The notes under the pieces are model-generated. The model did not search any database and was not told the DNA's origin. It worked only from the letters and a program-made list of their open reading frames with translations. A DNA stretch of 64,000 bases from an uncultured Erysipelotrichaceae bacterium (GTDB taxonomy: Bacteria; Bacillota_I; Bacilli_A; Erysipelotrichales; Erysipelotrichaceae), in NCBI GenBank assembly GCA_902761625.1, contig CACWLH010000002.1:8126-72125 (forward strand). The letters are read 5' to 3'. Shown here piece by piece: positions 2,584 to 45,203 of this stretch. The translations under genes were made by a program, and so were the position numbers. Position 1 is the stretch's first letter; every line of letters begins with the position of its first letter.

Positions 2584-2593
2584 ATTGATTTAC

Positions 2594-3373: not shown

Positions 3374-3376
3374 AGT

Positions 3377-5485: not shown

Positions 5486-5501
5486 CAGCATAACAAAAAG
5501 A

Positions 5502-5543
5502 GTCTTTGTGAATGAAGAAGTCTTCTGACACAAAGGCTTTTTT
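5502..5543 (+). terminator. Probable intrinsic terminator
   Basis: GTCTTTGTG ... CACAAAGGC stem (one G-U pair) followed by TTTTTT. Confidence 0.5.
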
Positions 5544-5631
5544 CTGTCTGCGTCTTCCTTCATGCAATAAAAGACGAAAAAAAAGAGTGGTATGACACTG
5601 CTTTACGCTGTATACGGGAGGAAAGCGCTTC

Positions 5632-6612
5632 ATGTTGAAATACAGATATTACCGCTCTTTGCTCAATCATAAGGAACAGACCGTCTATGAACAGCTGGTA
5701 AGCGCCATGGAGAAATGTGAAGAGGAAGTATTCACGGAAATGCTTTCGCAGGAAGAGCTGCACCGGATCTTTTTCGCCGTGAATCTGGACCAGCCGCAGC
5801 TGTTTCATGTGGATTTCAGAAGTATTGCCATCTGCCAAAGAGGAAACAGATATCTTCTGAAACCTGTCTATCATCTCAAGGGAAAACAATATACGGACGC
5901 AAAAAAGAATGTGGATCTGGCTGCCGCTGCGATTCTGGATGAAATGAAACAGAAGAAGCCGGAAGATCCGTTTCTTTTCCTTCATGACTGGCTGATTGTC
6001 AATTGCACATATGGAGAAACAGAAGAAAGAAGCAGGGAAGCCCATTGTGTCTATGGCGCTCTGGTTGATCATCATTGCGTCTGTGAAGGCTTTGCCAAGG
6101 CATACAGATATCTCTGCACGCTGGCTGATCTGCAATGCACAGTGATCACCGGCAATGCCACAGTGCCTTTTCAGCCTTCCGGTCCCCATGCATGGAATAT
6201 GATCCGTGATCACGGGCATCTGTATCATGTGGATGTGACCTTTGATCATCTGATTGCGCAGAAGTATTGTTCACGTTCCTATTACAGGGTTTCCGGACAG
6301 ATCATCCGCAAAGATCATTCGTTTGACACGCTCTTTCCGATTCCGCAGGCAAAACATAACGGATCTTCTCTCAAAACGGTCGCAGGAACCCGCCAGCTGA
6401 TCGCATTTATGAAAGACGAATGTTACCGGGGCAGCCATATGAGTCAGGTCAGGCTGACAAAAGGATTTGAAATGGATGACATCATTCAGAAAATCGAATC
6501 CGGCCTTTGCGAGGAGGATTATGCATGGTTTTCAAGGCTTCAAAGCTGCCATTATGCCCCGGGCACACGGGTGATCAGCTTTGTCTGGAATCAGCCTGTG
6601 TATGGCACATGA
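5632..6612 (+). CDS. Transglutaminase-like (papain-fold) cysteine protease superfamily protein
   Basis: A Cys-His-Asp core in canonical spacing: HHCVCEGFAKAY ... GPHAWNMI ... YHVDVTFD. GGGAGGA RBS upstream. Confidence 0.85.
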   Translation: MLKYRYYRSLLNHKEQTVYEQLVSAMEKCEEEVFTEMLSQEELHRIFFAVNLDQPQLFHVDFRSIAICQRGNRYLLKPVYHLKGKQYTDAKKNVDLAAAAILDEMKQKKPEDPFLFLHDWLIVNCTYGETEERSREAHCVYGALVDHHCVCEGFAKAYRYLCTLADLQCTVITGNATVPFQPSGPHAWNMIRDHGHLYHVDVTFDHLIAQKYCSRSYYRVSGQIIRKDHSFDTLFPIPQAKHNGSSLKTVAGTRQLIAFMKDECYRGSHMSQVRLTKGFEMDDIIQKIESGLCEEDYAWFSRLQSCHYAPGTRVISFVWNQPVYGT

Positions 6613-6687
6613 TCAGATCTGTTTTCAAAACATGAAAAAAAAGCAGTCTGGGTGAACAGATATGCTTGAAGTGTAAGGAGGAAAAAC

Positions 6688-7455
6688 ATGTCAGTTTTCA
6701 AAACAGGCGTCAATAACGCAAAACTCAATATCATTTTCATTCTCGATTCCAGCGGCTCCATGAGAGGGGCACGCATCGGTCAGCTCAATCTCGGTGTGCG
6801 GGACTGTCTGAACATGATCAGCCATATGGACGGTCTTGAGGAAGTCAACGTCGAGATCCGCATTCTCCAGTTTGACGAAGATGTCAGATGGGTGCTTGGC
6901 AATGAAGAATCCGGTGTTACTCCGGAAGAAGCGCTGAACACATTCCGTGACATCGATGCCGTCAATGCCATCACCTGCACACACATGGCGGTAAACAAGA
7001 CCATGGAATGCCTGAAGTCGATTTACGCCAGCGGCGGCAACAATTACATGCCGATTCTCATCCTGGTCACCGACGGACGTTCCACTTATCCCGAGGAAAC
7101 CGTAAAGTCCTGTATGGATCTCAGCAAAGTTCTCCACGGTCATACCCACCGTGATGAAGAACGCACCATCCGCATCTCCATCGGCGTCGAAGAGGCCAAC
7201 CGCGATGAACTGCTCGCCTTTGCCTCAAAGAGAACCATCGTTCATTCCGACGGACTGCAGGAAGCGGATGTGCCCAATATCTTCGAGGTCGACTCAGTCG
7301 AAAATCTCAGAGATGTCCTGAAGAACATCACCATGGCATCCATCTCCAATTCGATTTCCGCAAGTTCCTCTGAAACCGGACAGGTCATCGAATATGAGGA
7401 TGACATTTCCGATTCGGATGACGATGAGGATGACGGCATCTGGGAGGATCTCTGA
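6688..7455 (+). CDS. von Willebrand factor A (TerY-like) protein with an intact MIDAS and an acidic C-terminal tail
   Basis: MIDAS motif IIFILDSSGSMRG, then ITCTH and ILILVTDGRS. The C-terminus is EYEDDISDSDDDEDDGIWEDL. AAGGAGG RBS upstream. Confidence 0.9.
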   Translation: MSVFKTGVNNAKLNIIFILDSSGSMRGARIGQLNLGVRDCLNMISHMDGLEEVNVEIRILQFDEDVRWVLGNEESGVTPEEALNTFRDIDAVNAITCTHMAVNKTMECLKSIYASGGNNYMPILILVTDGRSTYPEETVKSCMDLSKVLHGHTHRDEERTIRISIGVEEANRDELLAFASKRTIVHSDGLQEADVPNIFEVDSVENLRDVLKNITMASISNSISASSSETGQVIEYEDDISDSDDDEDDGIWEDL

Positions 7456-7481
7456 ACCATTGAAAAAAACGGAGGAATGCA

Positions 7482-9188
7482 ATGAACAGGAACATGGAAG
7501 ATAACAGAAACGAAATCATACTGCCGTCCATCATGATCAATGAAGAGGAAAATACCGGTCAGTATGAACAGTACAGCCGTGAAACCTGCGCATGCGATTC
7601 CTCCGTTTATCTGTTCACTGCCCGCCGCAAGGGCAGAGGCCATATTGCAAAGGGAATGCCCTGTCAGGATTATGCCCTGAACCGGGAAATGAAATACGGT
7701 CTGATCATGACGGCGGCGGATGGACTTGGCAGCTGTGAATACAGTGATGAAGGTTCCCGGATTGCCTGCGAAAGTGCGGTCCATATCATCTCGGAAATCG
7801 GCACAAAGGCAAAGTCGGAAACCATCTTCATCAAAAAGCTGAACCAGCTGTTCACAAGAAAGCGGATCGTCATGGAATGGATGGACAGAGTCAGCGCTGT
7901 TGCTCAGGGAAAAAGCGGCGCTATGCCGGATGATCTTTATGAGGCAGCCCGTCCGTATAATTCCACTTTGATGTGCGCGGTGATCACGAAGCATTTCATC
8001 TATGTCATGAATATCGGCGACGGTCAGATTCTTCTGTTCAATTCCGATTATGCATACAGACTCCGTCCGTATATGAAAAAGAACAGCTCCATGACGGATT
8101 CCCTTCATGATGTGCGCAGCTGGATGGAAGGCTTTCAGACCGCCCTGTTTCCGAGAAGGTATTTCAACGGGATTCTTCTTTCAAGTGACGGCATCTATGA
8201 TTTTCTGAATGAGGGACAGAGTTTCCACCGTTATGCATGCCAGATGGCAGAGCGGTTTGTCTCCGCCGGCAGCCCGGCGTTTCCGTTTGATTATGTGACG
8301 GAAGACGGTAAGGTCCATCATATTTATGAAGGCGGCAGTTTTGATGACTGCACCGTCAATCTGGCCGTGATGATGAAGCCGCTCGCAGCTGATCCGGTTC
8401 ATGAATATGTACAGAATGCTTTTGAGAAAAACGCCATCAGCCGCATGAGCAGAAATGTGCGCAGATATCATGTGGCAAAAGACGGCAGAGAATCCATTCT
8501 GGTCACTTCATCCGCAATGTATGACTTCGATGTACAAAGCGCCAGTTTGATCAGGCCGTATCATGAAGAGACGGTTCATGATTGTCATTATTCGCTGTAT
8601 GAAACCATCCCGTTTACTTCCCTGGAAGAAATGTATGTTTCAGGCGCGTTCCATAATGGCAGAACGAATGATCTGAAACATCTCATGCGGATCGGCAGCT
8701 GCTATGCAAAACTGAAACGGCTCGCCGATGAACTGGCTGCGCAGAAATGGAAACTTTCAGACGCGTCCGGATTTCTTTGCGGTTTTGATGAAAGCGGCAG
8801 CCTTTATTTATGTGCGCAGGCGGTTTCACGGATGGAACAGGAAAAACCGGGTGAGCGCTATGCATGGGTCAATCTTTATTTCCGCAACATCTTCGGGTTC
8901 CTCGTTTTTGAAAACAGAAAAATTCCGGTCTTCCGCAAAGGCATCAATGAAACGGAACAGAAGGTGGAGCGGATTGACGGGCTGGATCATACACATTTCG
9001 GCACTATTCATTCCGCCGGCACTCATTGTGAGCTGGTCAATGAAAGCGGAAAAGAGTGGATCTGTGAAAATGGAGAATGCATCAGCCAGGGAGAATCGAT
9101 TGTTCTGGACAAGGCGGTCTCATTCAGCTTTGCGCCGAGAAATGATATCCGTCTGGCCTATCACTTTGTGAGAAAGGAGAGCTTATGA
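7482..9188 (+). CDS. PP2C_2-type phosphatase domain protein with a ~270-aa C-terminal extension
   Basis: KGMPCQDYAL, TAADGLGSCEYSDEGSRIA, NIGDGQILL and LLSSDGIYDF match the PP2C_2 pattern. The extension is unassigned. Its last ~60 aa look like a beta-rich module, possibly FHA-like. Confidence 0.8.
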   Translation: MNRNMEDNRNEIILPSIMINEEENTGQYEQYSRETCACDSSVYLFTARRKGRGHIAKGMPCQDYALNREMKYGLIMTAADGLGSCEYSDEGSRIACESAVHIISEIGTKAKSETIFIKKLNQLFTRKRIVMEWMDRVSAVAQGKSGAMPDDLYEAARPYNSTLMCAVITKHFIYVMNIGDGQILLFNSDYAYRLRPYMKKNSSMTDSLHDVRSWMEGFQTALFPRRYFNGILLSSDGIYDFLNEGQSFHRYACQMAERFVSAGSPAFPFDYVTEDGKVHHIYEGGSFDDCTVNLAVMMKPLAADPVHEYVQNAFEKNAISRMSRNVRRYHVAKDGRESILVTSSAMYDFDVQSASLIRPYHEETVHDCHYSLYETIPFTSLEEMYVSGAFHNGRTNDLKHLMRIGSCYAKLKRLADELAAQKWKLSDASGFLCGFDESGSLYLCAQAVSRMEQEKPGERYAWVNLYFRNIFGFLVFENRKIPVFRKGINETEQKVERIDGLDHTHFGTIHSAGTHCELVNESGKEWICENGECISQGESIVLDKAVSFSFAPRNDIRLAYHFVRKESL

Positions 9189-10645
9189 TCAAAGGCGATT
9201 ACCGGGAAGTGATCAAAACACTGCCCGGCGGGAAAAAGAAAACATACAAAGTCATAAGCTCCAAGGCCGGCAATGAATATGCGCTGCTGGGCAGACTGGG
9301 GCAGGGCGGGGTTGCCCGGGTTTTCCGTGCGAAGCGCTTAAGCGACGGGGCAATGTTTGCCTTCAAGCTGTTTGATTATTCTGATTCATCCGAAACCCGC
9401 TGGGAACACCGCAATATCCGCTCGAATATTGAAAGTCTGATCGCAAGAGGGACATCGGATGATCCTCAGCTGTTTGAAATTCTGGCAAGACCTTATGAAA
9501 TCATTGATCTCAAGGCATCGGGCGGCTTCGGCTATATCATGGAACTGGTCAGTCTTGACAACATGATGAAATTCTCAAAGATGATGAAATCGGCCCAGCC
9601 GGACAGGATGATCAGCCTGAAGATCTGCCGCAATATGGCATCCTTCTATGCGAGGCTGCACAGAAAATACGGCTTATGTTACAAGGATCTGAACAAAGGC
9701 AATCTGTTTGTGAATCCCGATACCGGCGAGATCCGGATCATCGATCTGGACAATATCAGCGTTCCCGAAACCAGAACGGTTATCGGCACATATGGATTCA
9801 TCGCTCCGGAGGTTTATGAAAGCGGCAGGCCGGATTATTATTCCGATTATTTTTCAGAAGCGTCTCTTTATTTCTTTCTGCTTACGATGGGGGCATTGCC
9901 TCTGATCGGCAGAAAAGTGCTGGATTATTCCCGCACGGGAGCGAATCTGAATGATTATGAAGTGCAGAAGAAGGTCTTCAATGAAGAGGCAATGTTCATC
10001 TTTGATCCGGACCACAATGAAAACTCCATCCGCGGACTGGAAGAATACAATGATCAGACCATGTTATGGGATGATCTTCCGGAAGAATTGAAACAGGCGT
10101 TTATCCGCACATTCACGAAAGGTCTTCATGATCCGTACCAGCGTGTTTCGGATAAAAACTGGGAGAAGATCTTTGAAGATGCGATTGCCACGCAGCTGGT
10201 GCAATGCCGCTGCGGAAAGCATAATTTCGGCGTGCATGCAGGAAGAAAAAAATGTATTTACTGTCACCGGCCGATCCGCAAACTCCATGGCGCAAAAGTC
10301 CCAGCAAAAAAGAAAAGTGAAAAACCATGCGTGAAATTTGAGGTGATCCGCAGCGTTGAACCGATGCGCATGCAGCTGATTGCGGATAATCAGAATCCGC
10401 AGATCAAAGATGTCCATCCCATGTTGCATGGGGATTTGTTAACTGTTAAAGTCAATAGGAAGAGGCATCTTTACGGGGCGCTCAACACGTCCCCGATCAC
10501 CTGGACGGTCTATGATAAAGAACACAATAAATCCCGTGTGGAGCCGGGCTGTATGGCGGTGCTTGAAGAGGGAACCATTATTGTGGTGATGTACAGAAAA
10601 CTTCAGCTTATGGTGAATGAAGTCATAACAGGAGGCGCAATATAA
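9185..10645 (+). CDS. Divergent Ser/Thr protein kinase with a zinc ribbon and a C-terminal beta-rich (FHA-like?) domain
   Basis: GQGGVARVF Gly-loop, AFKL lysine, YKDLNKGNLFV catalytic loop, IIDLDN and GFIAPE. Zinc ribbon CRCGKHN...CIYCHRP. The ATGA start overlaps the stop of the preceding gene. Confidence 0.85.
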   Translation: MIKGDYREVIKTLPGGKKKTYKVISSKAGNEYALLGRLGQGGVARVFRAKRLSDGAMFAFKLFDYSDSSETRWEHRNIRSNIESLIARGTSDDPQLFEILARPYEIIDLKASGGFGYIMELVSLDNMMKFSKMMKSAQPDRMISLKICRNMASFYARLHRKYGLCYKDLNKGNLFVNPDTGEIRIIDLDNISVPETRTVIGTYGFIAPEVYESGRPDYYSDYFSEASLYFFLLTMGALPLIGRKVLDYSRTGANLNDYEVQKKVFNEEAMFIFDPDHNENSIRGLEEYNDQTMLWDDLPEELKQAFIRTFTKGLHDPYQRVSDKNWEKIFEDAIATQLVQCRCGKHNFGVHAGRKKCIYCHRPIRKLHGAKVPAKKKSEKPCVKFEVIRSVEPMRMQLIADNQNPQIKDVHPMLHGDLLTVKVNRKRHLYGALNTSPITWTVYDKEHNKSRVEPGCMAVLEEGTIIVVMYRKLQLMVNEVITGGAI

Positions 10646-10646
10646 T

Positions 10647-11846
10647 ATGCAAACAGAAACAGCCAAAATGAACTCACTGGATTTATATCAGCGCATTCTG
10701 GCCGTGAAATCACAGGATTCATCCTTTGACGGCAGAAAGGCCGTGACTGCACTGATCACAAAGATGGCGCTTGAGCTGATTGAGGAGAAAACATCTCCAT
10801 TGCTCAATGCGTGCGTTTATGTGCTCGGACGGCGTGAACATCTTTATATCGGTCATGTCTACCGGTTTCAGCGGTTTGATCTGGATCTGAGAAATCCCGT
10901 GGACGGTGTGTCGGCGGCGGATGCGGCGGTATTGATCCGCTGTCTGGCCCAACTGGTTTCAAACGGACAGATCCGCAACAATGTCATCTATGATGTATGG
11001 TATGAATCATTCGGCACCTCCGGAACCACGCTAGGCGCCAATGCGGAGCGGGCTTATTATCTGGTCCGCATGATTGAAAGCTATCTGCCTGATTATGAAG
11101 CGCGTATCAATCATTCTCAGAAAGACGCTGCCGCGCAGACAGAAGAGCCGAAAACGGATGAACAGAACATCACACAGCCGGATGAGAAACAGGTGAGTGA
11201 AGAACAGGCACAGCAGATCATCAAAGAAGCGCAGGAAAAGGCCAGGGCAATCATTGCCAAAGCGGAACAGGAAGCCACTGAAATCCTGAAAAATGCGCAG
11301 AATGTGTCTGATCAGAAAATCAGGAAAGCGGCAGAGCAGGCAAAGCAGATGAATGTTTCCCGGAATCTGGAAACATTTGAAACACAGCAGAATGAGATCC
11401 ATACCGCTCTTTCGGAAATCCGCCGGCGGCTCAATGAAACCGGCGCATATCTGAATCAGATTGATCAGAAAATCAATGATGAAACGGTTATGAAGATCTT
11501 TGATCAATACGATGAACTCTATAACCTCATCGCGGATGTGGCGGACAGTACGGCAGCCAATATGGATGGGGACAGTCCTGATCTCAGGCGGGTTTATCAG
11601 AATCATCAGGCATATCTGGATCTGATTGAGGAAAATCTCTCAGACTTCGGAATTGAATATCTTGCCACATCGCAGGGCGAGCCGTTTGACGGCAGAAAGC
11701 ACGAGGTGAGCGGTTCGAAAAACTTTGATCCGCGCAGCGCAAAAGTGAAGAAGAGTCTGCGACATGGCTTTGTTTACGGAAAGTCCGTATTGAAGAAAGA
11801 ACTGGTTGAACTTCAGGAGGAACAATCAAATGTATATCGGCGTTGA
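10647..11846 (+). CDS. GrpE-like nucleotide-exchange factor with a novel N-terminal domain and a long coiled coil
   Basis: The C-terminus LSDFGIEYLATSQGEPFDGRKHEV...LRHGFVYGKSVLKKELVEL follows the GrpE pattern (FGvE..G.pFDp..HeA...GY..g..lR.a.V.V). It is preceded by the helix EQAQQIIKEAQEKARAIIAKAEQEATEIL. The gene starts 1 nt after the kinase stop. Confidence 0.7.
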   Translation: MQTETAKMNSLDLYQRILAVKSQDSSFDGRKAVTALITKMALELIEEKTSPLLNACVYVLGRREHLYIGHVYRFQRFDLDLRNPVDGVSAADAAVLIRCLAQLVSNGQIRNNVIYDVWYESFGTSGTTLGANAERAYYLVRMIESYLPDYEARINHSQKDAAAQTEEPKTDEQNITQPDEKQVSEEQAQQIIKEAQEKARAIIAKAEQEATEILKNAQNVSDQKIRKAAEQAKQMNVSRNLETFETQQNEIHTALSEIRRRLNETGAYLNQIDQKINDETVMKIFDQYDELYNLIADVADSTAANMDGDSPDLRRVYQNHQAYLDLIEENLSDFGIEYLATSQGEPFDGRKHEVSGSKNFDPRSAKVKKSLRHGFVYGKSVLKKELVELQEEQSNVYRR

Positions 11847-13299
11847 CTTCGGAACAGCCTATTCCCAGGCTGCGGTGATGGAATTCTCCCAGCCGCTCAT
11901 TCTTCAGGAAAAAGGCGTCTACGGCACCCCGAGTGTCTTCTATTATGATCAGGACACCGGCATCGCCATCGGTCAGGAGGCAATTGATATCGCCCAGGGC
12001 AGTCTTTCCGTCAATATGAAGACCGATGTCAAAATGGCATTGCAGGAAAACAAACCCTTTACCGCAGACGGAAAGGAATTCAGCTGTTCAGAGATTGTTT
12101 CCGAAATTTTCAAAGCGGTTCTGCTTGAGGCAAAGGAAATCGCCGCCAACAGCGGAATGGATGATGAAATCAAAGGAATGGTGATTACCGTTCCCGCCAA
12201 ATTCGGCTATCTGGAACGGGATATCATTTTCAAAAGCGCCGCTTCCGCTTTGGGCGATGAGAAAATTCCGATCACCGGTGTTCTGAAAGAACCGGTGGCG
12301 GCAGCCCTGCATTATTTCCGCACCAATGTTGAGGATGGAAAGCATATTCTTGTCTTTGATCTTGGCGGAGGCACATGCGATATCGCTCTGGTCAGAGCCA
12401 ATTCCGGCTCCAGGGAATTCTATGATGTCATCGATTCCGAGATGGAGAGGATCGGTGGACGAAACTGGGATGAGAAGATCGCGGAATATCTGAAAAATGA
12501 ATATGAAAAAATGACCGGCATTGCCATCGGTTCAAATCCGGCCTACGAAAGAAAAATCCTTGATGCGGCCATCCGCGCCAAGCACCGCCTTTCCAGAAAT
12601 GACAAGGCGCTCTGCTCGGTGGAAATCAACGGGAATGTCAATAAGATTCATCTGAGCCTTCAGCAGTTCAATGATCTGACTGCACCGCTTCTGGACCAGG
12701 CGGTCTCCGCATTGAAGCGGGTGTACAACCGTCATGTCTCAGACTGTGAAATCGATGAGATCATCTGTGTCGGCGGCAGTTCAAACATGACCCAGATCAA
12801 GGAAAGAATCGCAGCTGAATTCCCCCTGTGCAATGTGCGGGTGTACTATCCGGAATATGCGGTGGTCTATGGAGCGGCCCTTTATGCGGATATGAGAAAG
12901 GGCAAGGTTGTCGATGTCATTGACAGGGCGAATTTCTCCTATGGCATCCAGGTGGTGAAACACAAGGGAACAGAAAACGAAAAATACAAGATTCAGAATA
13001 TGGTCATCAAGGATTCCGCTTTGCCGGCCTCTTCGGTGCGCAACTACCGTCCCACCGAGGACAACATGGCATTTATCGCCTTCCGCACCTATGAAACCGA
13101 TACGGTATATGAGCGGTGCGACATGGATGAATTCCCGATGACCAAGATCGGTGAACTCAAACTCAAGCTTCCTCCGAATACACCGAAAACAACCGATATC
13201 CGCACCCAGCTCACCCTCAATGAGAACGGCGTTCTCGAAGTCAAGGCATGGGATCCGGAAGGCAATGTGATTCAGACTGAATTCAATGTGATTCAATGA
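11830..13299 (+). CDS. Hsp70/DnaK-family ATPase, short lidless form (489 aa)
   Basis: Hsp70 motifs IGVDFGT, VFDLGGGTCDIAL and ICVGGSSNMTQIKERI. A beta-sandwich substrate domain is present but no helical lid and no EEVD tail. GGAGGA RBS 8 nt upstream of the ATG at 11830. The gene overlaps the end of the GrpE-like gene. Confidence 0.9.
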   Translation: MYIGVDFGTAYSQAAVMEFSQPLILQEKGVYGTPSVFYYDQDTGIAIGQEAIDIAQGSLSVNMKTDVKMALQENKPFTADGKEFSCSEIVSEIFKAVLLEAKEIAANSGMDDEIKGMVITVPAKFGYLERDIIFKSAASALGDEKIPITGVLKEPVAAALHYFRTNVEDGKHILVFDLGGGTCDIALVRANSGSREFYDVIDSEMERIGGRNWDEKIAEYLKNEYEKMTGIAIGSNPAYERKILDAAIRAKHRLSRNDKALCSVEINGNVNKIHLSLQQFNDLTAPLLDQAVSALKRVYNRHVSDCEIDEIICVGGSSNMTQIKERIAAEFPLCNVRVYYPEYAVVYGAALYADMRKGKVVDVIDRANFSYGIQVVKHKGTENEKYKIQNMVIKDSALPASSVRNYRPTEDNMAFIAFRTYETDTVYERCDMDEFPMTKIGELKLKLPPNTPKTTDIRTQLTLNENGVLEVKAWDPEGNVIQTEFNVIQ

Positions 13300-13976
13300 T
13301 GAATGGGTCCGGAAGAATCATTGCCATTGCGGATATTCACGGCTGCAGCAGGGAATTCAAAGCGCTGTTGCAGCAGATCAGTCCGGATCCGGCAAATGAC
13401 ACATTGATCATTCTCGGCGATGTCATTGACAGAGGATATGATTCCGAAGGCGTCATCCGTGAGCTGATTGAACTTAAAGATGTCTTCAGACAGAAAATGA
13501 TCTGGCTGGCGGGCAATCATGAGGATGATCTTGTGCAAAGAAATGCGCAGAAACATTTCTTCATTCATCCGCCGCGCGATGCGCTCAGCACGTATATCCG
13601 GCTGTTCAGTGAACTTCCGTTAATTTATGAAACAGAAGAATGTGTCTTTGTGCATGCGGGATTCAATGGTGATCCGGACGACAGGCAGATCATTCTTCGT
13701 GACAGGAGTGTATTGAACGGGGAAAGGATTTATCAGGGAAAGCTGTATATCAGCGGGCATTCCCCGTTTCATAAACATTCGTTCACACCATTGGCTCAGC
13801 CGTTATATATTGATGAAACAGGTCAGTGTCATATTGTATATGACGGCATGAAACTGCCGGAAAAAGGCGCCATATTCATTGACACAGGCTGTGTATACAA
13901 AAACAGACTGACCGCATTCATCATTGCGCAGGACCATACCATTCAGATCAGCTTTGTAAAGTTCATCGGAATATAA
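13296..13976 (+). CDS. PPP-family (calcineurin-like) metallophosphatase, PrpA/lambda-phosphatase-like
   Basis: Motifs IADIHGC, ILGDVIDRG, GNHE, VHAG and SGHS. The ATGA start overlaps the Hsp70 stop. Confidence 0.9.
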   Translation: MMNGSGRIIAIADIHGCSREFKALLQQISPDPANDTLIILGDVIDRGYDSEGVIRELIELKDVFRQKMIWLAGNHEDDLVQRNAQKHFFIHPPRDALSTYIRLFSELPLIYETEECVFVHAGFNGDPDDRQIILRDRSVLNGERIYQGKLYISGHSPFHKHSFTPLAQPLYIDETGQCHIVYDGMKLPEKGAIFIDTGCVYKNRLTAFIIAQDHTIQISFVKFIGI

Positions 13977-14221
13977 CCGCCGGTATCAGAAGATGCCGGC
14001 TTTTCACATGTTCATGTGCAAAGAACGGAAGATGATCCGGGCTCATCGCTCACGCATGTTTATTGACACAATCGGAAACATACTGAACTTTAGGATATGA
14101 TTGCGGCAGATTCATGGCAAACCTGAGAACTGTCGCCGTATTTGCCATGAAATATAAATGAAATTAACAACCGGACAATAGAAAATGGAAACCGATTGTG
14201 CTATTGTAGTTTCGTAAGCAG

Positions 14222-14554
14222 ATGTTTTTGCGTGCAAGTGAAACTATGGATGATCGTGAACTGAAAAAACTCAGCAGACAGGATCTGCTTGAAATGCTGG
14301 TGGAACTGTCCAGAGAAAACGAAAAACTGAAACAGCAGCTCGATGCGGCAAACAAAGAGCTTGAGTCAAAGCGGATCAGACTCTCGGAAGCAGGAAACAT
14401 CGCAGAGGCGGCCATGAGAGTCAATCAGGTGTTTGAAACCGCCCAGGCCGCCGCAAGTCAGTATCTGGCAAATATCAGACTGATGGAAATACAGAAACAG
14501 AAAGAACTGGAAAGGCTGAAGGCACACAATAGCGGCAAGGATGAGAAACAATAA
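14222..14554 (+). CDS. Small coiled-coil protein of unknown function (alternative start at 14246)
   Basis: ORF with heptad-rich sequence (LSRQDLLEMLVELSRENEKLKQQLDAANKELE...). I remember similar small proteins from Clostridia, but no family name is assigned. Confidence 0.5.
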   Translation: MFLRASETMDDRELKKLSRQDLLEMLVELSRENEKLKQQLDAANKELESKRIRLSEAGNIAEAAMRVNQVFETAQAAASQYLANIRLMEIQKQKELERLKAHNSGKDEKQ

Positions 14555-14654
14555 GCGCCGCTATCGTCCTGAGGACATTCCGACATCCGCTCAGTTTGAA
14601 AAAGAGGCTATGAAAGCTTCTCATCTGATGAAAGTGACAGCGGCGGTATGCTGA
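14541..14654 (+). pseudogene. Possible N-terminal remnant of a signal-peptidase-I-like gene (37 codons)
   Basis: MRNNKRRYRPEDIPTSAQFEKEAMK... resembles the cytoplasmic N-termini of clostridial type I signal peptidases. It stops before any TM or catalytic region. It overlaps the upstream gene by 14 nt. Confidence 0.25.
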
Positions 14655-14702
14655 TATTGGCAGCCCTGCTCATGAAGAAACTGAATCATTGAACAATAAA
14701 AT

Positions 14703-14738
14703 GAAAAAGAGTCTGATCACAAAGATCAGGCTCTTTTG
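14703..14738. terminator. Bidirectional intrinsic terminator
   Basis: AGAGTCTGATC-ACAAA-GATCAGGCTCT hairpin flanked by an A-run and a T-run, between convergent genes. Confidence 0.65.
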
Positions 14739-14747
14739 GTGATGCGG

Positions 14748-15470
14748 TCAGAACAGAAGATCATCGTCATCGTCATCGAAATCATCCGGATCATCTTCAC
14801 TGACGCTCAATACCTCTTTCAGCATATTGTCAAAGACCCGGCTGAACATTGACTTGATCCGGTCTCTCAACGGGATCATGAACAATGAGAGCAGAACGAA
14901 GACAGCGGAGAACATGAATTTGCCGGAAACGATCCATGTGATCACAAAGACTGCGAATGCTGTCAGTGCCCATAACAGACGGACACCGTTGGCATTGCAA
15001 TAAGACGCAAGCAGGCAGAGGAACAGGAAAGCAGCCATGACGAATCCGCCCGCCAGGATCAGGTAGCCGAACTTCCAGAAAGTGGAGTCAATGGTGAGCC
15101 AGCCCGCTGTGACGAGAGTGATCGCGAAGGCAAGCATCTGGGAAAAGAATGCCTGGTGAGTCTGATCAAGGCAGTACTTTTTCAGCTTCTTCTTTGCGTA
15201 AAGCGTCTGGCTTGCTTCGTCAACCGTAAGCTCCGCAATGGAGCAGATCAGAAAACAGATCAGCCCGTAGAAAATGGCAAACGGCAATAACCGGATGATC
15301 CGTTCCATCAGGGAGTAATTCCGGTAATAAGGTGCGAAATCATCCAGTACCGCCGGCAGACAGTCATAGATCAATGTCTCAAACAATGATGTGAATGAAT
15401 ACTGAACACACCATACGCCGGCAAGAATCAGAACGAATACGAAGATATCTTCTAAAATGGAATGACTCAT
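14748..15470 (-). CDS. Multi-pass membrane protein with a poly-acidic C-terminal tail
   Basis: About six hydrophobic segments. The C-terminus is SEDDPDDFDDDDDDLLF. I chose the start at 15470 (MSHSILEDIF) because of a GGGGG RBS; the longer ORF-track start at 15596 has none. Confidence 0.75.
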   Translation of the reverse strand: MSHSILEDIFVFVLILAGVWCVQYSFTSLFETLIYDCLPAVLDDFAPYYRNYSLMERIIRLLPFAIFYGLICFLICSIAELTVDEASQTLYAKKKLKKYCLDQTHQAFFSQMLAFAITLVTAGWLTIDSTFWKFGYLILAGGFVMAAFLFLCLLASYCNANGVRLLWALTAFAVFVITWIVSGKFMFSAVFVLLSLFMIPLRDRIKSMFSRVFDNMLKEVLSVSEDDPDDFDDDDDDLLF

Positions 15471-15655
15471 ATAATCCCCCTTTCTTTCATGGACTGCAGA
15501 CTTTTGAGCAACCATGATTGATGTTCCCTTACAGGAAAAGTATCTCATCTGTACATGGCCATCTTTTTTTTCGGGTTTTGGTCTGTCATAAGGCAATCAT
15601 GAGGAAAAAAAAGGATCATTTGATATGTGACAGAATGAAATCATGAAGGAGTGAA

Positions 15656-16036
15656 ATGATTATGGCAAAAGAAATCGGCAAAGAGGAACTTCTGGAAATG
15701 ATGGTGACACATCTGGATTGTGTCTGTGAACTGTTTCAGGCAAATGACTGTGCAATCAAGAAACTTCACAGCTTTCTTATGAACAGCGATATTCCGTATC
15801 TTGTGCTTCCGGACAGCCATCATGATTTCATGATCATCTATCTCAATCTGCATGGCAATGAAGGTGAGGCAGGATACAGAATCACCCATGATCCAGCCGG
15901 CCGCGACTGGCTGCAAATCAGTACGGATGACGGCGTGATGGGGGAATGCATGAGTGCATCTGAAGTATTCGGCATCCTTAAAGAAGCTTATGAAAGGGAT
16001 ACATATGTCAATGAAAACGGATTCTTCGACGCATGA
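15656..16036 (+). CDS. Hypothetical small cytoplasmic protein
   Basis: 126-aa ORF with a GGAG RBS, in an operon-like overlap with the next gene. No family recognised. Confidence 0.55.
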   Translation: MIMAKEIGKEELLEMMVTHLDCVCELFQANDCAIKKLHSFLMNSDIPYLVLPDSHHDFMIIYLNLHGNEGEAGYRITHDPAGRDWLQISTDDGVMGECMSASEVFGILKEAYERDTYVNENGFFDA

Positions 16037-16574
16037 GGTCAGCGTGCTGCCCGTCGTTGTTGTGATCGATACATCTGAAAAAGCCGAAGCGATGGCGGGT
16101 GTGATGGATCCGTCTCTTCTGAGCAGCCTCTGCACAGCCTCTCATCTGTATGCGGATCATCCTTATCCGATGCTTTCAATCATCACTTCCGGCGCTGAGC
16201 CGAAGATGATCAAATGCTGGTATATGCCTTTTCAGCCCAAACGGACGGATCTGGTATTCAAAGGAGAGAATCATATGCATCGCTCACTCTATATGGCGAT
16301 CGAGGAAATCCGCTGGCTGTGCAGACATCTGGAACATTATGAGATTGCATATGAGAAACCGCGCATCTATATGCTTAACGCAAGTGAGGCGGATGATAAT
16401 GAAAACGGAGTCATAAAGGCATTGCATTTACGCATGGAGCGCGGCAGATGCGATTTCATTGAGGCTGTTTACGGTATAGGCATTTCAGCGGATGGCATGT
16501 CTTTTGACACGCTTGCGCAGGGACTGGCGTGGATTGAAAAAGATCTGAAACTGATGAAACGAAATACATTCTGA
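16005..16574 (+). CDS. Degenerate vWA/TerY-like protein with a lost MIDAS
   Basis: The motif order follows a vWA fold, but the metal ligands are replaced. LPVVVVIDTSEKAEAM stands where DxSxS is expected, LSIITSGAEP where the vWA pattern has lsvitFgs, and KPRIYMLNASEADDN where TDG is expected. Confidence 0.5.
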   Translation: MSMKTDSSTHEVSVLPVVVVIDTSEKAEAMAGVMDPSLLSSLCTASHLYADHPYPMLSIITSGAEPKMIKCWYMPFQPKRTDLVFKGENHMHRSLYMAIEEIRWLCRHLEHYEIAYEKPRIYMLNASEADDNENGVIKALHLRMERGRCDFIEAVYGIGISADGMSFDTLAQGLAWIEKDLKLMKRNTF

Positions 16575-16653
16575 ATGGAATCATTTACATATTTTTGCAT
16601 CATGATTCAATGGTATACTTTCACTAAAGTGGATAATACGGAGGGAAACGATA

Positions 16654-18096
16654 ATGAAAAAGTATTTCCAGAGTGCAGGGGCTGTTTTGCTCGCTGCCGC
16701 AATGCTCACAGGCTGTTCCTCAACACAGCCGTCCGAAACACCTGCTGAAGAAGCTTCACAGGAAACAGCACCCGAAGGCACTTATGAAGTGAAGATGGGC
16801 GCAACTGTCACCGATGCCGGTCAGTATGTTGACAGAATGACAATTGACTTCGGCAGCGATGTCAGAGTGTCCGACGTGGATTATGAAACATTTGAAGTTC
16901 ATATGACATCCACCGTCGACTATGGCGCTGAAAAGGGCAACCCCTATGCATACTATGATGCAAGTGCTCCGCTCAAGGTTGTCGGTGTTGAAACCAACGA
17001 CGGCGTTGTCACGGTTTATTTCGATCAGTCACAGGCTCCGACGCTGACATGGCTTGGCGAAGGCAGAAACTATCCGGCTGTTCTGGAATTCACCATTGCC
17101 CAGACAAAGGAACTCACTCTCACAACCAAGGATGGAAGAGAACTTCCGTTCACCGGTGAATACACATGTTCCGCAAAATCTTATAAGGATCTCGAGTGCC
17201 CGGAAGTGGCTGCTTACACAGATGTCCAGGATGAGATCAACTATCAGTTCCATAAAGGCTCCAATGACAAGCTGATCGTCTTCTTCCATGGCAATGGCGA
17301 AGGCGACTTCCCGGTCAAGGACACCAACAACAATATCACTCAGATTCTTGCCAACAGAGGCGGCGCCGCATGGGTCACAGAGGCACAGGAAGTCTTCGGT
17401 GATGCAAGTGTCATGTGCTTCCAGGCTCCGAATATGTGGTATTTCGCAGTCAAGGACAACCTTCTGGAACCCTGCTACAACGAAATCCAGAAAGTGATCG
17501 AAGAAAACAAGATCAATCCTGAGGAAGTTTACCTTTCCGGCGCTTCTGCGGGCGGATTCATGTCCACACGCATGATCATCGCTTATCCGGATCTGTTCAA
17601 GGCTGCCATGATCAACTGCCCGGCGCTTGACGCTGCCAATGCGAGAAGCGAATCCGACGATGCCATCCCGACTGATGAGGAACTGGCACAGCTGCTCAAC
17701 TCTGACACAAAGATCTGGCTGGTTCAGGGTGAGACAGACAGCTCCGTTGATCCGGAACAGTGCTCAAAGAGAATCTGGAATATCATCACCAAGGATGCTG
17801 AGATCAAGGAAACACACGTTGACGGCGATCTGGGTATCGGTTCCGCTTTCACAACTTATGAAACAGCTGATGACAAGTACAAGCTCTCCCTGTATGAGAC
17901 ATTCGATCTGGCCGAAGTCACCGGCATTTCCGGCGAGACAAGACAGGGCGGCAAGCTGAAGTTTGCGGAAGACTATGATCAGGACGGTATTTACACAGAA
18001 GTCAAATACAGTGACCACTGGTCATGGATCTACACCCTCAGAAACAATCCTGAGGCAGCTGACGGAACCCATATCTGGGAATGGGCTGTCAAATAA
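16654..18096 (+). CDS. Secreted lipoprotein, alpha/beta-hydrolase (esterase/peptidase S9-like)
   Basis: Lipobox AAAMLTGCSS. Nucleophile elbow YLSGASAGGFMS. GGAGGG RBS. Confidence 0.8.
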   Translation: MKKYFQSAGAVLLAAAMLTGCSSTQPSETPAEEASQETAPEGTYEVKMGATVTDAGQYVDRMTIDFGSDVRVSDVDYETFEVHMTSTVDYGAEKGNPYAYYDASAPLKVVGVETNDGVVTVYFDQSQAPTLTWLGEGRNYPAVLEFTIAQTKELTLTTKDGRELPFTGEYTCSAKSYKDLECPEVAAYTDVQDEINYQFHKGSNDKLIVFFHGNGEGDFPVKDTNNNITQILANRGGAAWVTEAQEVFGDASVMCFQAPNMWYFAVKDNLLEPCYNEIQKVIEENKINPEEVYLSGASAGGFMSTRMIIAYPDLFKAAMINCPALDAANARSESDDAIPTDEELAQLLNSDTKIWLVQGETDSSVDPEQCSKRIWNIITKDAEIKETHVDGDLGIGSAFTTYETADDKYKLSLYETFDLAEVTGISGETRQGGKLKFAEDYDQDGIYTEVKYSDHWSWIYTLRNNPEAADGTHIWEWAVK

Positions 18097-18122
18097 GCAT
18101 TTTCTGACAATTGAATACGAAG

Positions 18123-18150
18123 GCACGCGGCAGACAGCTGCGTGCTTTTT
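18123..18150 (+). terminator. Rho-independent terminator
   Basis: 9-bp GC-rich stem (GCACGCGGC/GCTGCGTGC) followed by TTTTT. Confidence 0.7.
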
Positions 18151-18300
18151 GTCTGTGCATGCATTGAAAATACTTTCATTCGCTTTCACCTTTCTCACAC
18201 AGAAAAACAGCTGAACAGGATGTATGATGGAACTCCAACCCGAAAAAAAAGATTGGTTCAGTCCCGTGTAAATTTATAAAAAAGAAAATGGAGGTAAAAC

Positions 18301-19698
18301 ATGTTTTTATCGCAGCTCAATGATGAAAAACAGTCCTGTGTGATTCATGATTTCGAAGCGCTGCCTGATCGCAATCTTGACGAGAAGGTTGTTTACGGTG
18401 AACTGGTCACGGACAATATCATTCTTCTGTTCAACAAGGAAACCGATGCTTTCTGGGAAATCAGTGTTCCGGCATGGAAGAAGGGCCTGTATCATCAGGC
18501 GGAAAGAATTGATGATATCTGCACATTCTGGAATCTGATCCGCGGCGTCTACAGAAGTGAGCAGAAAGGTCTTGTATACAGAAGAATGGGTGCGCGCGCC
18601 TATGTTTATCATATGGATGTCTTCAACAAATGTCATCCGTATACCGCCAATGAGATCATCCTCTGGGACAGTGAACAGATGGATCATCTTCTGATGAAAT
18701 ATGACCGGGATGTGGTCAATACAGCCTTTGCCATCCATTATCTCCAGTATCCCCAGATTGAAAAACTCTATAAGGCCGGTTTTGAACATATCATTCTCAA
18801 CTGGGTGCTCAATGACCGCTATACTGCCAAAGATGCCGCTTTGTTCGAAAAATGCTTCAAAGACGCAAAGACCATCAATCAGATCACCTCTTTGACCAAA
18901 GGGCAGTGGTCGCAGCTGATCTCATTCAGACTGAATCTGAAAGAATGGTCATGGTTAAAGGGCGTTCTTTCAACTTATAAAATTGATGATGTCAATGTGG
19001 CACCGCTTGTCAGGATGATGATCCGCGGAGAGGAAAGCTTCTGCAAAAGCTTCATGAAAATCGTCAAATGCACAAGCAACGGAAAGCCTGCCTATGATGC
19101 GGATCAATTGATCCGTGATCTGATCAATGATCACGGAAATACGGAGATGCCTTCGCACAGGGCATGCATTTATCTGGCTGACTATATCCGCCTGTGCGAA
19201 AGGAACCGGATGGAGCCTGTCTACCGCAGTGAGCATCTCATTGAGGAACATGACATGATGGTCATCGTTGCCCAGGAGAAGAGACAGCAGAAAAATGATG
19301 AGGAGACGCAGAAGATCTATGACCGCCGCTATCAGGAATTAAGCAAATATCTTTATGAAAGCAGTGAGCTGGCTGTCATCCTGCCGATGCGTTTCAGCGA
19401 TCTCATCTATGAAGGCAGAAACAATCACAATTGCGTGGGCAGCCTTTATGTTTCAAGATATCAGGACGGAACATCGAATATCTTCTTCATCCGTGAGAAG
19501 AAACATCCCCTGCAGTCCTATATCACGGTGGAGCTGAATGCTTCATGTGAAAAGACAATCCAGGCATTTTATTCCTATAACCGCAGAATCACCGACAAAC
19601 GGGATCTGCAGTTCATTGACGACTGGCTTGCATACAATAAGCGGATTAACAGATACGGCTTACAAAACGCACAGAAACCTTCTTCAGAAGGCTTATAA
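18301..19698 (+). CDS. PcfJ-like domain protein
   Basis: The C-terminal LIYEGRNNHNCVGSLYVSRYQDGTSNIFFIREKKHPLQSYITVEL...IQAFYSYNRR matches my memory of the PcfJ-like domain. GGAGG RBS. Confidence 0.6.
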   Translation: MFLSQLNDEKQSCVIHDFEALPDRNLDEKVVYGELVTDNIILLFNKETDAFWEISVPAWKKGLYHQAERIDDICTFWNLIRGVYRSEQKGLVYRRMGARAYVYHMDVFNKCHPYTANEIILWDSEQMDHLLMKYDRDVVNTAFAIHYLQYPQIEKLYKAGFEHIILNWVLNDRYTAKDAALFEKCFKDAKTINQITSLTKGQWSQLISFRLNLKEWSWLKGVLSTYKIDDVNVAPLVRMMIRGEESFCKSFMKIVKCTSNGKPAYDADQLIRDLINDHGNTEMPSHRACIYLADYIRLCERNRMEPVYRSEHLIEEHDMMVIVAQEKRQQKNDEETQKIYDRRYQELSKYLYESSELAVILPMRFSDLIYEGRNNHNCVGSLYVSRYQDGTSNIFFIREKKHPLQSYITVELNASCEKTIQAFYSYNRRITDKRDLQFIDDWLAYNKRINRYGLQNAQKPSSEGL

Positions 19699-21192: not shown

Positions 21193-21232
21193 GCGGGCAT
21201 TCATCTGAATAGATGGGTGCCTGCGTGTTTTT
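21193..21232 (+). terminator. Intrinsic terminator
   Basis: A ~13-bp imperfect stem (GCGGGCATTCATCT / AGATGGGTGCCTGC) followed by GTGTTTTT. Confidence 0.55.
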
Positions 21233-21282
21233 GGCGCAAAGTGTGTTGTTTTCAAAGAAAGAAGGTGATTATAATAAAGAAT

Positions 21283-24882: not shown

Positions 24883-24904
24883 TCGTTTTACAATCATACT
24901 GCAT

Positions 24905-24937
24905 CAGACCGCATGTGCATTTCATGCGGTCTGTTCT
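24905..24937 (+). terminator. Hairpin terminator with a weak U-tract
   Basis: Perfect 11-bp stem CAGACCGCATG/CATGCGGTCTG followed by TTCTCC. Confidence 0.45.
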
Positions 24938-24951
24938 CCAAAGGAGTCACT

Positions 24952-33579: not shown

Positions 33580-33589
33580 TCCGGTTTTT

Positions 33590-34306: not shown

Positions 34307-34312
34307 TCACGC

Positions 34313-43799: not shown

Positions 43800-45203
<1,404 letters not shown>

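Follow-up and report, generated by a model that had tools for sequence, protein, structure and literature searches.

A GrpE-like protein and a lidless Hsp70 recur with a TerY-P-like triad of vWA, phosphatase and kinase genes in gut and rumen bacteria

A 64,000-nucleotide stretch of DNA from an uncultured Erysipelotrichaceae bacterium (GenBank assembly GCA_902761625.1, contig CACWLH010000002.1, positions 8,126 to 72,125 of the forward strand; hereafter the window, numbered from its first letter) encodes a GrpE-like protein and an Hsp70 without a lid, placed directly behind genes for a stand-alone vWA protein, a PP2C-type phosphatase and a Ser/Thr kinase. A TerY-like vWA protein, a PP2C phosphatase and a Ser/Thr kinase are the three components by which the TerY-P triad was defined (Anantharaman et al. 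2012, as summarised in PMC11090510). The same gene set occurs in about a hundred gut and rumen bacterial species. We consider it reasonably probable, though well short of certain, that the GrpE-like protein and the lidless Hsp70 make up a dedicated, J-independent ATPase module that is integral to a TerY-P-like conflict system and is not a general folding machine. The grounds for this are homology, domain anatomy, the conservation and loss of particular residues, and conserved gene linkage. An earlier description by a model that saw the sequence alone (the sequence-only reading) had called these two genes, together with the metallophosphatase gene that follows them, a private chaperone module co-translated with the triad.

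Seven plus-strand genes are packed into positions 5632-13976 with almost no spacing, according to the open reading frame (ORF) list and Pfam. They are listed here, with the parts of the GrpE-like protein given separately.

5632..6612, + strand: transglutaminase-like (papain-fold) protein, 326 residues (Pfam Transglut_core, E 3.3e-6; PDB 9crn, transglutaminase-like, E 1.4e-9)
6688..7455, + strand: stand-alone vWA (TerY-like) protein, 255 residues (Pfam VWA, E 3.4e-10)
7482..9188, + strand: PP2C-type phosphatase, 568 residues, with a C-terminal extension of about 300 residues (Pfam PP2C_2, E 1e-28)
9185..10645, + strand: Ser/Thr kinase, 486 residues, with a C-terminal Zn ribbon and beta-rich domain (Pfam Pkinase, E 1.5e-13)
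10647..11846, + strand: GrpE-like protein, 399 residues, whole gene (without a direct Pfam match)
10647..11135, + strand: N-terminal helical domain of the GrpE-like protein, about residues 1-163 (AlphaFold; matches of the domain's hidden Markov model, HMM, at 10656-11135)
11205..11558, + strand: single long helix of the GrpE-like protein, about 118 residues (AlphaFold model; presumed dimeric coiled-coil stalk)
11394..11846, + strand: GrpE-homologous core, comprising the stalk end, second helix and C-terminal beta domain (HMM matches at 11394-11825)
11830..13299, + strand: lidless Hsp70, 489 residues (Pfam HSP70, 176.8 bits, E 7e-52)
13296..13976, + strand: PPP-family (ApaH-like) metallophosphatase, 226 residues (Pfam Metallophos, E 1e-18)

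The junctions between these genes are tight. The PP2C and kinase genes overlap by 4 nucleotides, a single nucleotide separates the kinase stop codon from the ATG of the GrpE-like gene, the GrpE-like and Hsp70 genes overlap by 17 nucleotides, and the phosphatase gene overlaps the Hsp70 gene by 4, its ATG sharing the letters ATGA with the Hsp70 TGA. We place the start of the Hsp70 at ATG 11830, which has AGGAGG 8 nucleotides upstream, within the 3' end of the GrpE-like gene; the TTG at 11806 called in the ORF list was rejected in favour of this start. No convincing plus-strand terminator was seen inside the gene block in a simple scan. Co-translation with the triad, as the sequence-only reading had it, is better put in softer words: the ORFs are co-directional and overlap or abut, which suggests one operon with translational coupling.

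The association of these genes extends far beyond the window. Some 300 Hsp70 relatives came from a word-indexed search; among these, the 120 best matches listed are all 484-516 residues long at 39-78% identity. Thirteen metagenome loci, drawn from six clusters with 39-66% Hsp70 identity, all carry one to three vWA genes, a PP2C gene, a kinase gene, an optional gene of about 440 residues, the GrpE-like gene and the Hsp70 gene. A scan of one genome per species across 185,579 species, with the motifs [YF]DLGGGTCD and CVGGSSNM, yielded at most 170 relatives and 78 loci, 57 of them with a family-level Hsp70. The Hsp70 family, with proteins of about 490 residues, is present in roughly 10^2 of these species genomes. 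Its hosts are mainly Lachnospiraceae and Selenomonadaceae, and it was also found in Faecousia, Bifidobacterium tissieri, B. vansinderenii, Candidatus Enterococcus moelleringii, Synergistaceae and Planctomycetia.

To survey the neighbourhoods, HMMs built from the first loci were run against all loci, which are cited here by their L numbers. The GrpE-like gene lies immediately upstream of the Hsp70 gene in 45 of the 51 genome loci with enough sequence. Three of the six apparent misses are tandem Hsp70 triplets behind one GrpE-like gene; of the rest, one has the gene 1.8 kb off and one has an unassigned gap of 1.4 kb, and only L038 is empty upstream. Of the 36 genome loci whose upstream flank reaches 7 kb or more, 30 encode one or more members of the triad, and nearly all of these 30 have all three at E<=1e-5. 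Clustering by BLAST, independent of annotation, gave the same picture across 71 family loci: Hsp70 in 71, the GrpE-like protein in 67, kinase in 51, PP2C in 50, vWA in 44 and the transglutaminase-like protein in 12, with every remaining cluster in no more than nine loci and confined to one lineage. The sequence-only reading had left open that orthologues of the Hsp70 lie mostly elsewhere; they are overwhelmingly inside neighbourhoods with kinase, PP2C and vWA genes.

Gene order is not fixed. In Lachnospiraceae it is vWA-PP2C-kinase-GrpE-Hsp70, and in Selenomonadaceae, Enterococcus and one planctomycete it is kinase-vWA-PP2C-GrpE-Hsp70, so the linkage persists through a change of gene order. 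Content varies as well, with extra vWA copies, tandem triplication of the Hsp70 and added transglutaminase, HNH or phosphatase genes. Three tandem lidless Hsp70 paralogues stand behind one GrpE-like gene in L033 (8408-13193), L034 (6597-11461) and L035 (5214-10105), and also in L070; these come from Clostridia/Eubacteriales assemblies. A spirochaete locus (L075, Spirochaetia) has two more divergent Hsp70 copies.

The Hsp70 itself scores far above the Pfam HSP70 threshold (PF00012, 176.8 bits vs a cut-off of 20.6) and contains the motifs IGVDFGT, DLGGGTCD and VGGSSN. Its residues 3-475 align to DnaK structures, with the nucleotide-binding domain at about residues 1-358, a short linker, and a beta substrate-binding domain that continues to the C-terminus. 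That end falls at about DnaK 505, where the beta substrate domain stops and the helical lid would follow; the protein is therefore lidless. This is the protein that had been described from the sequence, with every ATPase motif and a beta substrate domain and with an end at residue 489 that leaves no lid or tail, and the alignment of the family bears the description out. Among 66 unique members compared with E. coli DnaK (a reference sequence checked at 18 index residues), D8, K70, E171, D194, T199 and D201 are kept in every one, and the C-terminus lies at DnaK 505-512 in 62, with no lid or tail. Linker residue D393 is kept in 65 of the 66, linker positions 390-391 are mainly hydrophobic, and the positions of the substrate pocket are mostly hydrophobic across the family. 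A second group of positions has changed almost as uniformly: R167 is replaced by G, A or D in 65 of 66, N170 by K or R in 64, and T173 by V or A in all 66. In DnaK these three are J-domain docking residues.

No J-protein was found with a J-domain HMM in the 64-kb window, in agreement with the earlier remark that none is encoded nearby, and a single one was found among the 71 family loci (L074, 5 kb downstream). The same HMM detected J-proteins beside unrelated Hsp70s at L079, L081, L082 and L086, which served as positive controls. These four loci (Acidimicrobiales, Cyanobacteriota, Acutalibacteraceae and Coriobacteriales) encode atypical Hsp70s that are 24-26% identical and share one of the two search motifs; each lies a few kb or less from a gene for a J-domain protein, and none has a GrpE-like gene. 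They represent another family or families and could be the conflict-system Hsp70s described by Kaur et al. 2020.

Family members are 23-29% identical to DnaK. Scores against curated NCBIfam models, which we used to place the window protein relative to DnaK and HscA, all fall far below the respective cut-offs: 158.6 vs 648 for DnaK NF001413, 157.7 vs 822 for TIGR02350, 143.7 vs 620 for HscA and 46.9 vs 331 for PRK11678, labelled "molecular chaperone." Neither hrcA nor dnaJ is found near the window Hsp70. Judged by its sequence, this protein is too divergent, and its family too rare, to be the housekeeping DnaK, as had been supposed from the missing lid.

The partner encoded upstream can be recognised as a GrpE homologue through its relatives. 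An exhaustive HMMER search with the GrpE-like protein found 165 clusters of relatives (a word-indexed search gave 3), and the part conserved across them is residues ~180-397. Among 34 diverse C-terminal halves of homologues, 28 match Pfam GrpE (PF01025), the best at E 1e-11, and the family profile matches Geobacillus GrpE in the PDB (4ani) at E 6e-6, aligned over the helical and beta regions. The window protein itself aligns to most of the NCBIfam GrpE model NF010751, below threshold (E 0.005, 16.4 bits against a cut-off of 266). Because it falls below the Pfam GrpE threshold while its relatives and the family profile do match, its GrpE homology is transitive and not direct.

Structure prediction agrees with this assignment. 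The AlphaFold model (m288bbee12c6a, from a multiple sequence alignment of 65 sequences) has a mean confidence (pLDDT, predicted local distance difference test) of 89 and consists of a helical N-domain (model residues 1-156), a disordered linker, a helix of about 118 residues, a second helix and a small beta domain; ORF numbering is model numbering plus 7. The long helix covers model residues 180-297, and the low-confidence segment 162-177 lies in a linker of about 23 residues. In a Foldseek search of the PDB the top 11 matches were all GrpE or GrpEL1 (GrpEL1, 1dkg, 4ani and 3a6m among them), at probability 0.99-1.0 and a template-modelling score, normalised to the target, of 0.36-0.57. The GrpE fold is recognisable in the long helix, the helix of the four-helix bundle and the C-terminal beta domain (FGIE..GEPFDGRKHE..GFVYG), so that both the GrpE-type C-terminus and the long charged helix named in the sequence-only reading have their counterpart in the model. 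By analogy with GrpE, we infer that the stalk dimerises.

The N-terminal domain is another matter, and here the earlier inability to assign a globular region of some 150 residues turned out to be well founded. Modelled alone, its approximately 155 residues fold confidently (pLDDT 91.7; predicted template-modelling score 0.87) into a helical domain, for which neither Pfam nor the PDB sequences contain a relative and for which no fold relative was found among PDB or viral models (best E ~1.8). A word-indexed search with an alignment of the domain returned nothing at E<=0.001. Its invariant positions are a Ser near the N-terminus, an E-L pair and the Ser in "SPLL." It is a new domain without known relative.

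The three genes upstream have the architecture of a TerY-P triad, namely adjacent genes matching Pfam VWA, PP2C_2 and Pkinase with a Zn ribbon after the kinase domain. In translation, the metal ion-dependent adhesion site (MIDAS) of the vWA protein, DxSxS, is intact (FILDSSGSM), and the protein ends in an acidic tail, ...DDEDDGIWEDL (window 7390-7455; ...EYEDDISDSDDDEDDGIWEDL). Other vWA proteins of the family loci (L001-L078) have tails such as ...DDEGDWEE and ...PDEDW, and nearly all of them finish in a stretch of acidic residues that has a Trp at the very end or close to it. Of 47 unique vWA proteins from the family loci, 38 have a Trp among the last eight residues, vs 57 of 529 other ORFs, and 28 have one in acidic context, vs 5 of 529. 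This tail looks like a candidate short docking motif. In the kinase, the CxC...CxxC ribbon is followed in the alignment by a conserved beta-rich domain (G..N.S...W...PG); against PDB sequences the kinase tail gives weak matches to Zn-ribbon proteins, which cover the ribbon and leave the beta-rich part unmatched. The optional gene of about 440 residues between the kinase and GrpE-like genes is a paralogue of this Zn-ribbon and beta-rich region. It occurs in many Lachnospiraceae-type loci, namely L002-L010, L014, L015, L017, L020 and L021 (for example L005, 7446-8768). A stand-alone, 206-residue version of the kinase C-terminal domain is encoded directly upstream of the GrpE-like gene in L031 (8391-9011), a locus that has no triad, which hints that this domain of the kinase perhaps contacts the chaperone pair.

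Taken together, these features allow a working to be proposed. The Hsp70 would be a catalytically competent, allosteric, ATP-driven peptide clamp. Having no lid, it would be expected to exchange bound peptides fast, and with its J-docking residues lost, its cycle would not be driven by a DnaJ-type co-chaperone. The GrpE-like protein would dimerise through its helix of about 118 residues, and its beta domain would bind the nucleotide-binding domain of the Hsp70 and eject ADP. At the far end of the stalk, roughly 15-18 nm off, the N-domain may serve as an adaptor between the Hsp70 and a partner or client. The kinase and PP2C pair would set a reversible on/off threshold, and the vWA protein, with its metal-dependent site and acidic-Trp tail, would be the likeliest docking partner or client. 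Coupled to the output of the kinase, the clamp would capture an invader-derived peptide signal or else restrain a component of the system until a signal arrives, and in some lineages a transglutaminase-like, HNH or phosphatase accessory would be added. Delivery of a client by the vWA protein or by the N-domain of the GrpE-like protein, which the sequence-only reading had raised, is plausible, and the acidic-Trp tail gives the idea a concrete and testable form.

A more specific proposal is that the phosphorylation switch, the acidic-Trp tail of the vWA protein, or both drive the Hsp70 cycle, that the GrpE homologue serves as exchange factor and long-reach adaptor in one, and that the whole acts as an infection sensor in TerY-P-type immunity. 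We put this forward as speculation that is more probably wrong than right. If it were true, bacteria would have in this system their first dedicated Hsp70 immune sensor, and the pair would be the first natural J-independent, lidless Hsp70 and exchange factor with a defined partner.

Several observations weigh against seeing the pair as an integral part of a conflict system. The triad is absent in 6 of the 36 well-flanked genome loci, and Pfam shows different surroundings in the five of these that were looked at: the pair stands behind HerA-like and FtsK-like ATPases in L031; it lies between a 1566-residue HD and CYTH protein and a TPR and DUF2971 protein in L039; it has a lone kinase downstream in L036 (Bifidobacterium); and it is surrounded by ordinary metabolic genes in L069 and L071. 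The GrpE-like/Hsp70 pair is thus a two-gene cassette that is usually, and not always, plugged into the triad, and an Hsp70 dedicated to a kinase, phosphatase and vWA module, as first described, stands as conserved synteny in 30 of 36 loci and fails as an exclusive arrangement. In a Pfam census, 149 same-strand flanking ORFs were mostly housekeeping (peptide deformylase, 8 times; alanine racemase), with a few matches to transglutaminase-like, Tox-HNH-HHH, Metallophos or trypsin-like proteins, so there is no universal extra effector and no consistent defence-island setting. PADLOC had no match to the vWA or PP2C protein, gave generic families for the kinase (PD-T4-6, mad6) and returned no system-level match; with the vWA and PP2C proteins missed, a defence role is assigned by analogy only. 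On the chaperone side, Pfam GrpE gives no match for the window protein even at E<=10, for which reason we infer exchange activity from homology and fold. About half of the GrpE-like proteins give a match to the N-domain, and a few relatives, at 167-177 residues, consist of the GrpE core alone, so this domain is not essential to the core mechanism. Finally, the replaced J-contact positions, read against E. coli DnaK and its interface with DnaJ, do not prove J-independence.

Some of these observations fit a reading in which the same module serves signalling or stress functions unrelated to phage defence, such as a metal or tellurite-type response, envelope stress or a developmental switch, with the Hsp70 remodelling a client controlled by the kinase and phosphatase. 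We think this rather unlikely, yet it is the alternative that survives best. The original proposal for TerY-P triads was a metal-sensing phosphorylation switch with a link to tellurite resistance (as cited in PMC11090510), PADLOC found no system, and the flanks are mostly housekeeping. In Selenomonadaceae the core even lies at a fixed site, with a gene of about 160 residues directly downstream (L041, L043-L046, L048, L053 and L061) that is probably the peptide deformylase of the census, which suggests vertical inheritance within the family after one insertion. The module is also nearly absent from viral contigs (2 matches in 2.9 million), and in tblastn searches the GrpE-like protein was unmatched in plasmid and phage records and the vWA protein in plasmid records. 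Against a role outside defence, the family is patchy and rare across phyla and varies in copy number and accessories, as is typical of horizontally moving conflict systems, and some loci lie beside EcoRII restriction-modification genes with Vsr, Tox-HNH-HHH toxins or trypsin-like peptidases. The further idea of a phage-borne system was dropped on the viral contig count, despite one cluster labelled Caudoviricetes.

It is distinctly improbable, in our judgement, that the Hsp70 is instead an effector or scaffold, forming ATP-dependent multimers, as proposed for Hsp70s of GTPase-centred systems, or binding RNA or ribosomes, as proposed for CnuD (an Hsp70-like protein of CoCoNuT systems), with the GrpE-like stalk as a spacer. 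Multimeric Hsp70 assemblies have been suggested as effectors (Kaur et al. 2020, PMC7159879, section 35), RNA binding has been argued for Hsp70-like units with nucleotide-binding and substrate-binding domains found alongside TerY-P (PMC11090510), an obvious effector other than the Hsp70 is missing from most loci, and the Hsp70 is triplicated in tandem behind one GrpE-like gene in L033-L035. However, the Walker-like motifs of CnuD-type proteins are degenerate, and poor ATPase activity is predicted for them (PMC11090510), whereas the family described here keeps every catalytic residue. Retention of a dedicated exchange factor implies active nucleotide cycling, and a mostly hydrophobic substrate pocket fits peptide binding. 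That the pair is simply the housekeeping DnaK and GrpE, standing beside signalling genes by chance, is effectively refuted: the window has no second dnaK or grpE, but the Hsp70 is only 23-29% identical to DnaK, reaches 158.6 bits where the DnaK model demands 648, and has lost lid, C-terminal tail and J-contact residues, while the GrpE-like protein has some 250 residues more than a GrpE and scores too low for Pfam GrpE, no dnaJ or hrcA is nearby, and a family limited to about 10^2 of 185,579 species genomes recurs in an unusual neighbourhood.

The last gene of the block has a different standing. The metallophosphatase carries DIHG, GDVIDRG and GNHE in translation and matches PF00149 with 68.9 bits vs a cut-off of 21.5, which places it in the PPP family, and it starts on the Hsp70 stop codon, all as first described. 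The label lambda/PrpA-like did not hold. Ranked PDB matches put ApaH-like enzymes first (2qjc, 1.4e-11; ApaH, 1e-9) and lambda phosphatase well behind (1.3e-4), and among NCBIfam models ApaH PRK00166 reaches E 1e-20 and 74.2 bits vs a cut-off of 176 and the PrpA/B-type PRK11439 reaches 39.5 vs 326, so that neither equivalog threshold is attained. By these comparisons the enzyme is closer to ApaH-like enzymes than to lambda/PrpA, and it may act on a protein or on a dinucleoside polyphosphate. Outside the window it was found only in L001, with a weak match in L068 and a fragment in L003, and Metallophos accounts for 3 of the 149 flanking ORFs. It is a rare, lineage-specific accessory and not a general member of the module, contrary to its inclusion in the sequence-only reading.

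The transglutaminase-like gene at the head of the block is likewise an occasional companion. Its Cys-His-Asp motifs are intact in translation (VCEGFA, HAW and DVT), and 12 of the 71 family loci have a homologue on one side or the other of the core (L001, L009-L013, L016, L017, L033, L051, L074 and L078). Tox-HNH-HHH nucleases take a similar position in L002, L004-L007 and L011. The transglutaminase-like protein is possibly a lineage-specific effector.

Elsewhere in the window, a divergently transcribed pair of genes lies upstream of the operon, a PP2C-like protein (2594-3373, minus strand) and a 679-residue protein with degenerate-kinase and RHS-repeat regions (544-2583, minus strand). They are followed by a 702-residue protein (3377-5485, plus strand) that has no relative in Pfam or among PDB sequences. 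The start codons of 2594-3373 and 3377-5485 diverge only 3 base pairs apart, and at least one annotated start may be wrong. L001 has genes that match the 544-5485 arrangement by size, orientation and position only, and the arrangement was not seen in the wider family. On the other side, 7 kb from the operon and behind unrelated genes, 21217-24882 encodes a 1221-residue SNF2 helicase with SNF2_assoc and SWIM domains and strong PADLOC matches to DpdE/ZorD-like models, followed by a UvrA-like double ABC ATPase (region 21217-27438) with a mad3-like PADLOC match at E 1.7e-72. These matches may reflect generic helicase and ABC similarity or a separate defence locus. The window also contains a PcfJ-like protein of a conjugative-plasmid-associated family (18301-19698), an IS1595-type transposase (43855-44934) and a sortase-dependent pilus/adhesin locus with a 2407-residue protein (32398-42044). 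Neither a tRNA gene nor the boundary of an island was recognised anywhere in the 64 kb, and a ribosomal-protein gene (L3) at 45860 suggests that the window is chromosomal.

Among known systems, TerY-P itself is the closest point of comparison. As a three-gene system it has been reported to be anti-phage and active on T7-like phages (PMC7699616, summarising Gao 2020), and predicted restriction systems repeatedly include TerY-P with a Zn-ribbon kinase (PMC11090510). The window resembles the triads linked to CoCoNuT in having adjacent genes for a stand-alone MIDAS vWA protein, a PP2C phosphatase and a kinase with a C-terminal Zn ribbon. It differs from TerY-P as described in that its triad continues into a GrpE-like protein and a lidless Hsp70, in that a beta-rich domain follows the kinase ribbon, and in that PADLOC models miss the vWA and PP2C proteins; the triad adjoins no McrBC, helicase or HEPN gene. 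The literature searched, which did not include Anantharaman 2012 (where the association may be mentioned) or Gao 2020, does not describe TerY-P together with GrpE and a lidless Hsp70.

Both halves of the system have been noted before, as separate items, in the GAP1-N2 systems, which are centred on a GTPase. There, Hsp70 with GrpE (with DnaJ fusions) and a kinase (Zn ribbon, beta-rich) with PP2C and vWA are two of three non-overlapping accessory themes (Kaur et al. 2020, PMC7159879, section 29). As in the Hsp70 theme, the window has a non-housekeeping Hsp70 with its own GrpE in a predicted conflict system, and the same paper supplies the kinase, PP2C and vWA theme. The GAP1-N2 themes, however, are attached to GTPase, GAP1 and FNIII components, and their Hsp70 theme comes with a DnaJ-fused protein, whereas the window merges both themes, has a lidless Hsp70 and has no J-domain, and no GTPase was found. 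Pfam gave no match to GTPase, GAP1-like or FNIII domains on the major ORFs (about 200 residues upwards) at 544-19698, where several ORFs have no Pfam match of any kind and a divergent component is possible. With those defining components not found, membership in GAP1-N2 was rejected.

CoCoNuT type III-A (Bell et al. 2024) offers a second precedent, since Hsp70-like units with nucleotide-binding and substrate-binding domains, CnuCD/CnuD, co-occur there with TerY-P (PMC11090510). The window shares this pairing of TerY-P with an Hsp70-like protein that has both domains. CnuD, by comparison, is joined to McrC/McrB homologues and HEAT repeats by fusion or linkage, its ATPase motifs are degenerate, it is predicted to bind RNA, and it has no reported exchange factor (PMC11090510), while the window Hsp70 has intact ATPase residues, a GrpE-like partner and no McrBC. 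None of the defining components, McrB-like GTPase, McrC N-terminal domain (DUF2357) or CnuH/CnuE helicase-HEPN, was found in or beside the operon, and membership in type III-A was likewise rejected.

With the canonical DnaK-GrpE-DnaJ machine (1DKG, 4ANI, 5NRO) the pair shares the Hsp70 fold, the catalytic set, the beta substrate domain, and the long helix and beta domain of GrpE. It departs from that machine in the missing lid and tail, the replaced R167, N170 and T173, the lack of a J-protein and an identity of 23-29%. The GrpE-like protein, for its part, has a much longer stalk than canonical GrpE and an extra N-terminal domain. In eukaryotic BAG proteins, an Hsp70 exchange domain, a three-helix bundle, is joined to separate targeting domains. 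The GrpE-like protein would resemble them in logic only, in that an exchange domain is joined to a domain with a hypothetical targeting role; fold and ancestry are unrelated. For chaperones that sense infection there are precedents in the DnaJ-dependent sensing by bNACHT25 (PMC12169576) and in the SecB-like chaperone of toxin-antitoxin-chaperone systems (bioRxiv 10.1101/2024.02.24.581848).

Set against these systems, what the window and its relatives add is of use to two fields. The papers covered give no mechanism for TerY-P, and the biochemistry of Hsp70 and GrpE is among the best understood, which makes the proposed switch directly testable. A confidently folded new domain of about 155 residues and a candidate vWA docking motif are supplied with it. 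For the chaperone field, the Hsp70s of about a hundred species, which have lost the lid and the J-interface and have kept the catalytic residues and a private GrpE, amount to a natural experiment. For the study of bacterial conflict, two accessory themes reported as mutually exclusive, Hsp70 with GrpE and kinase with PP2C and vWA, occur together here as one unit.

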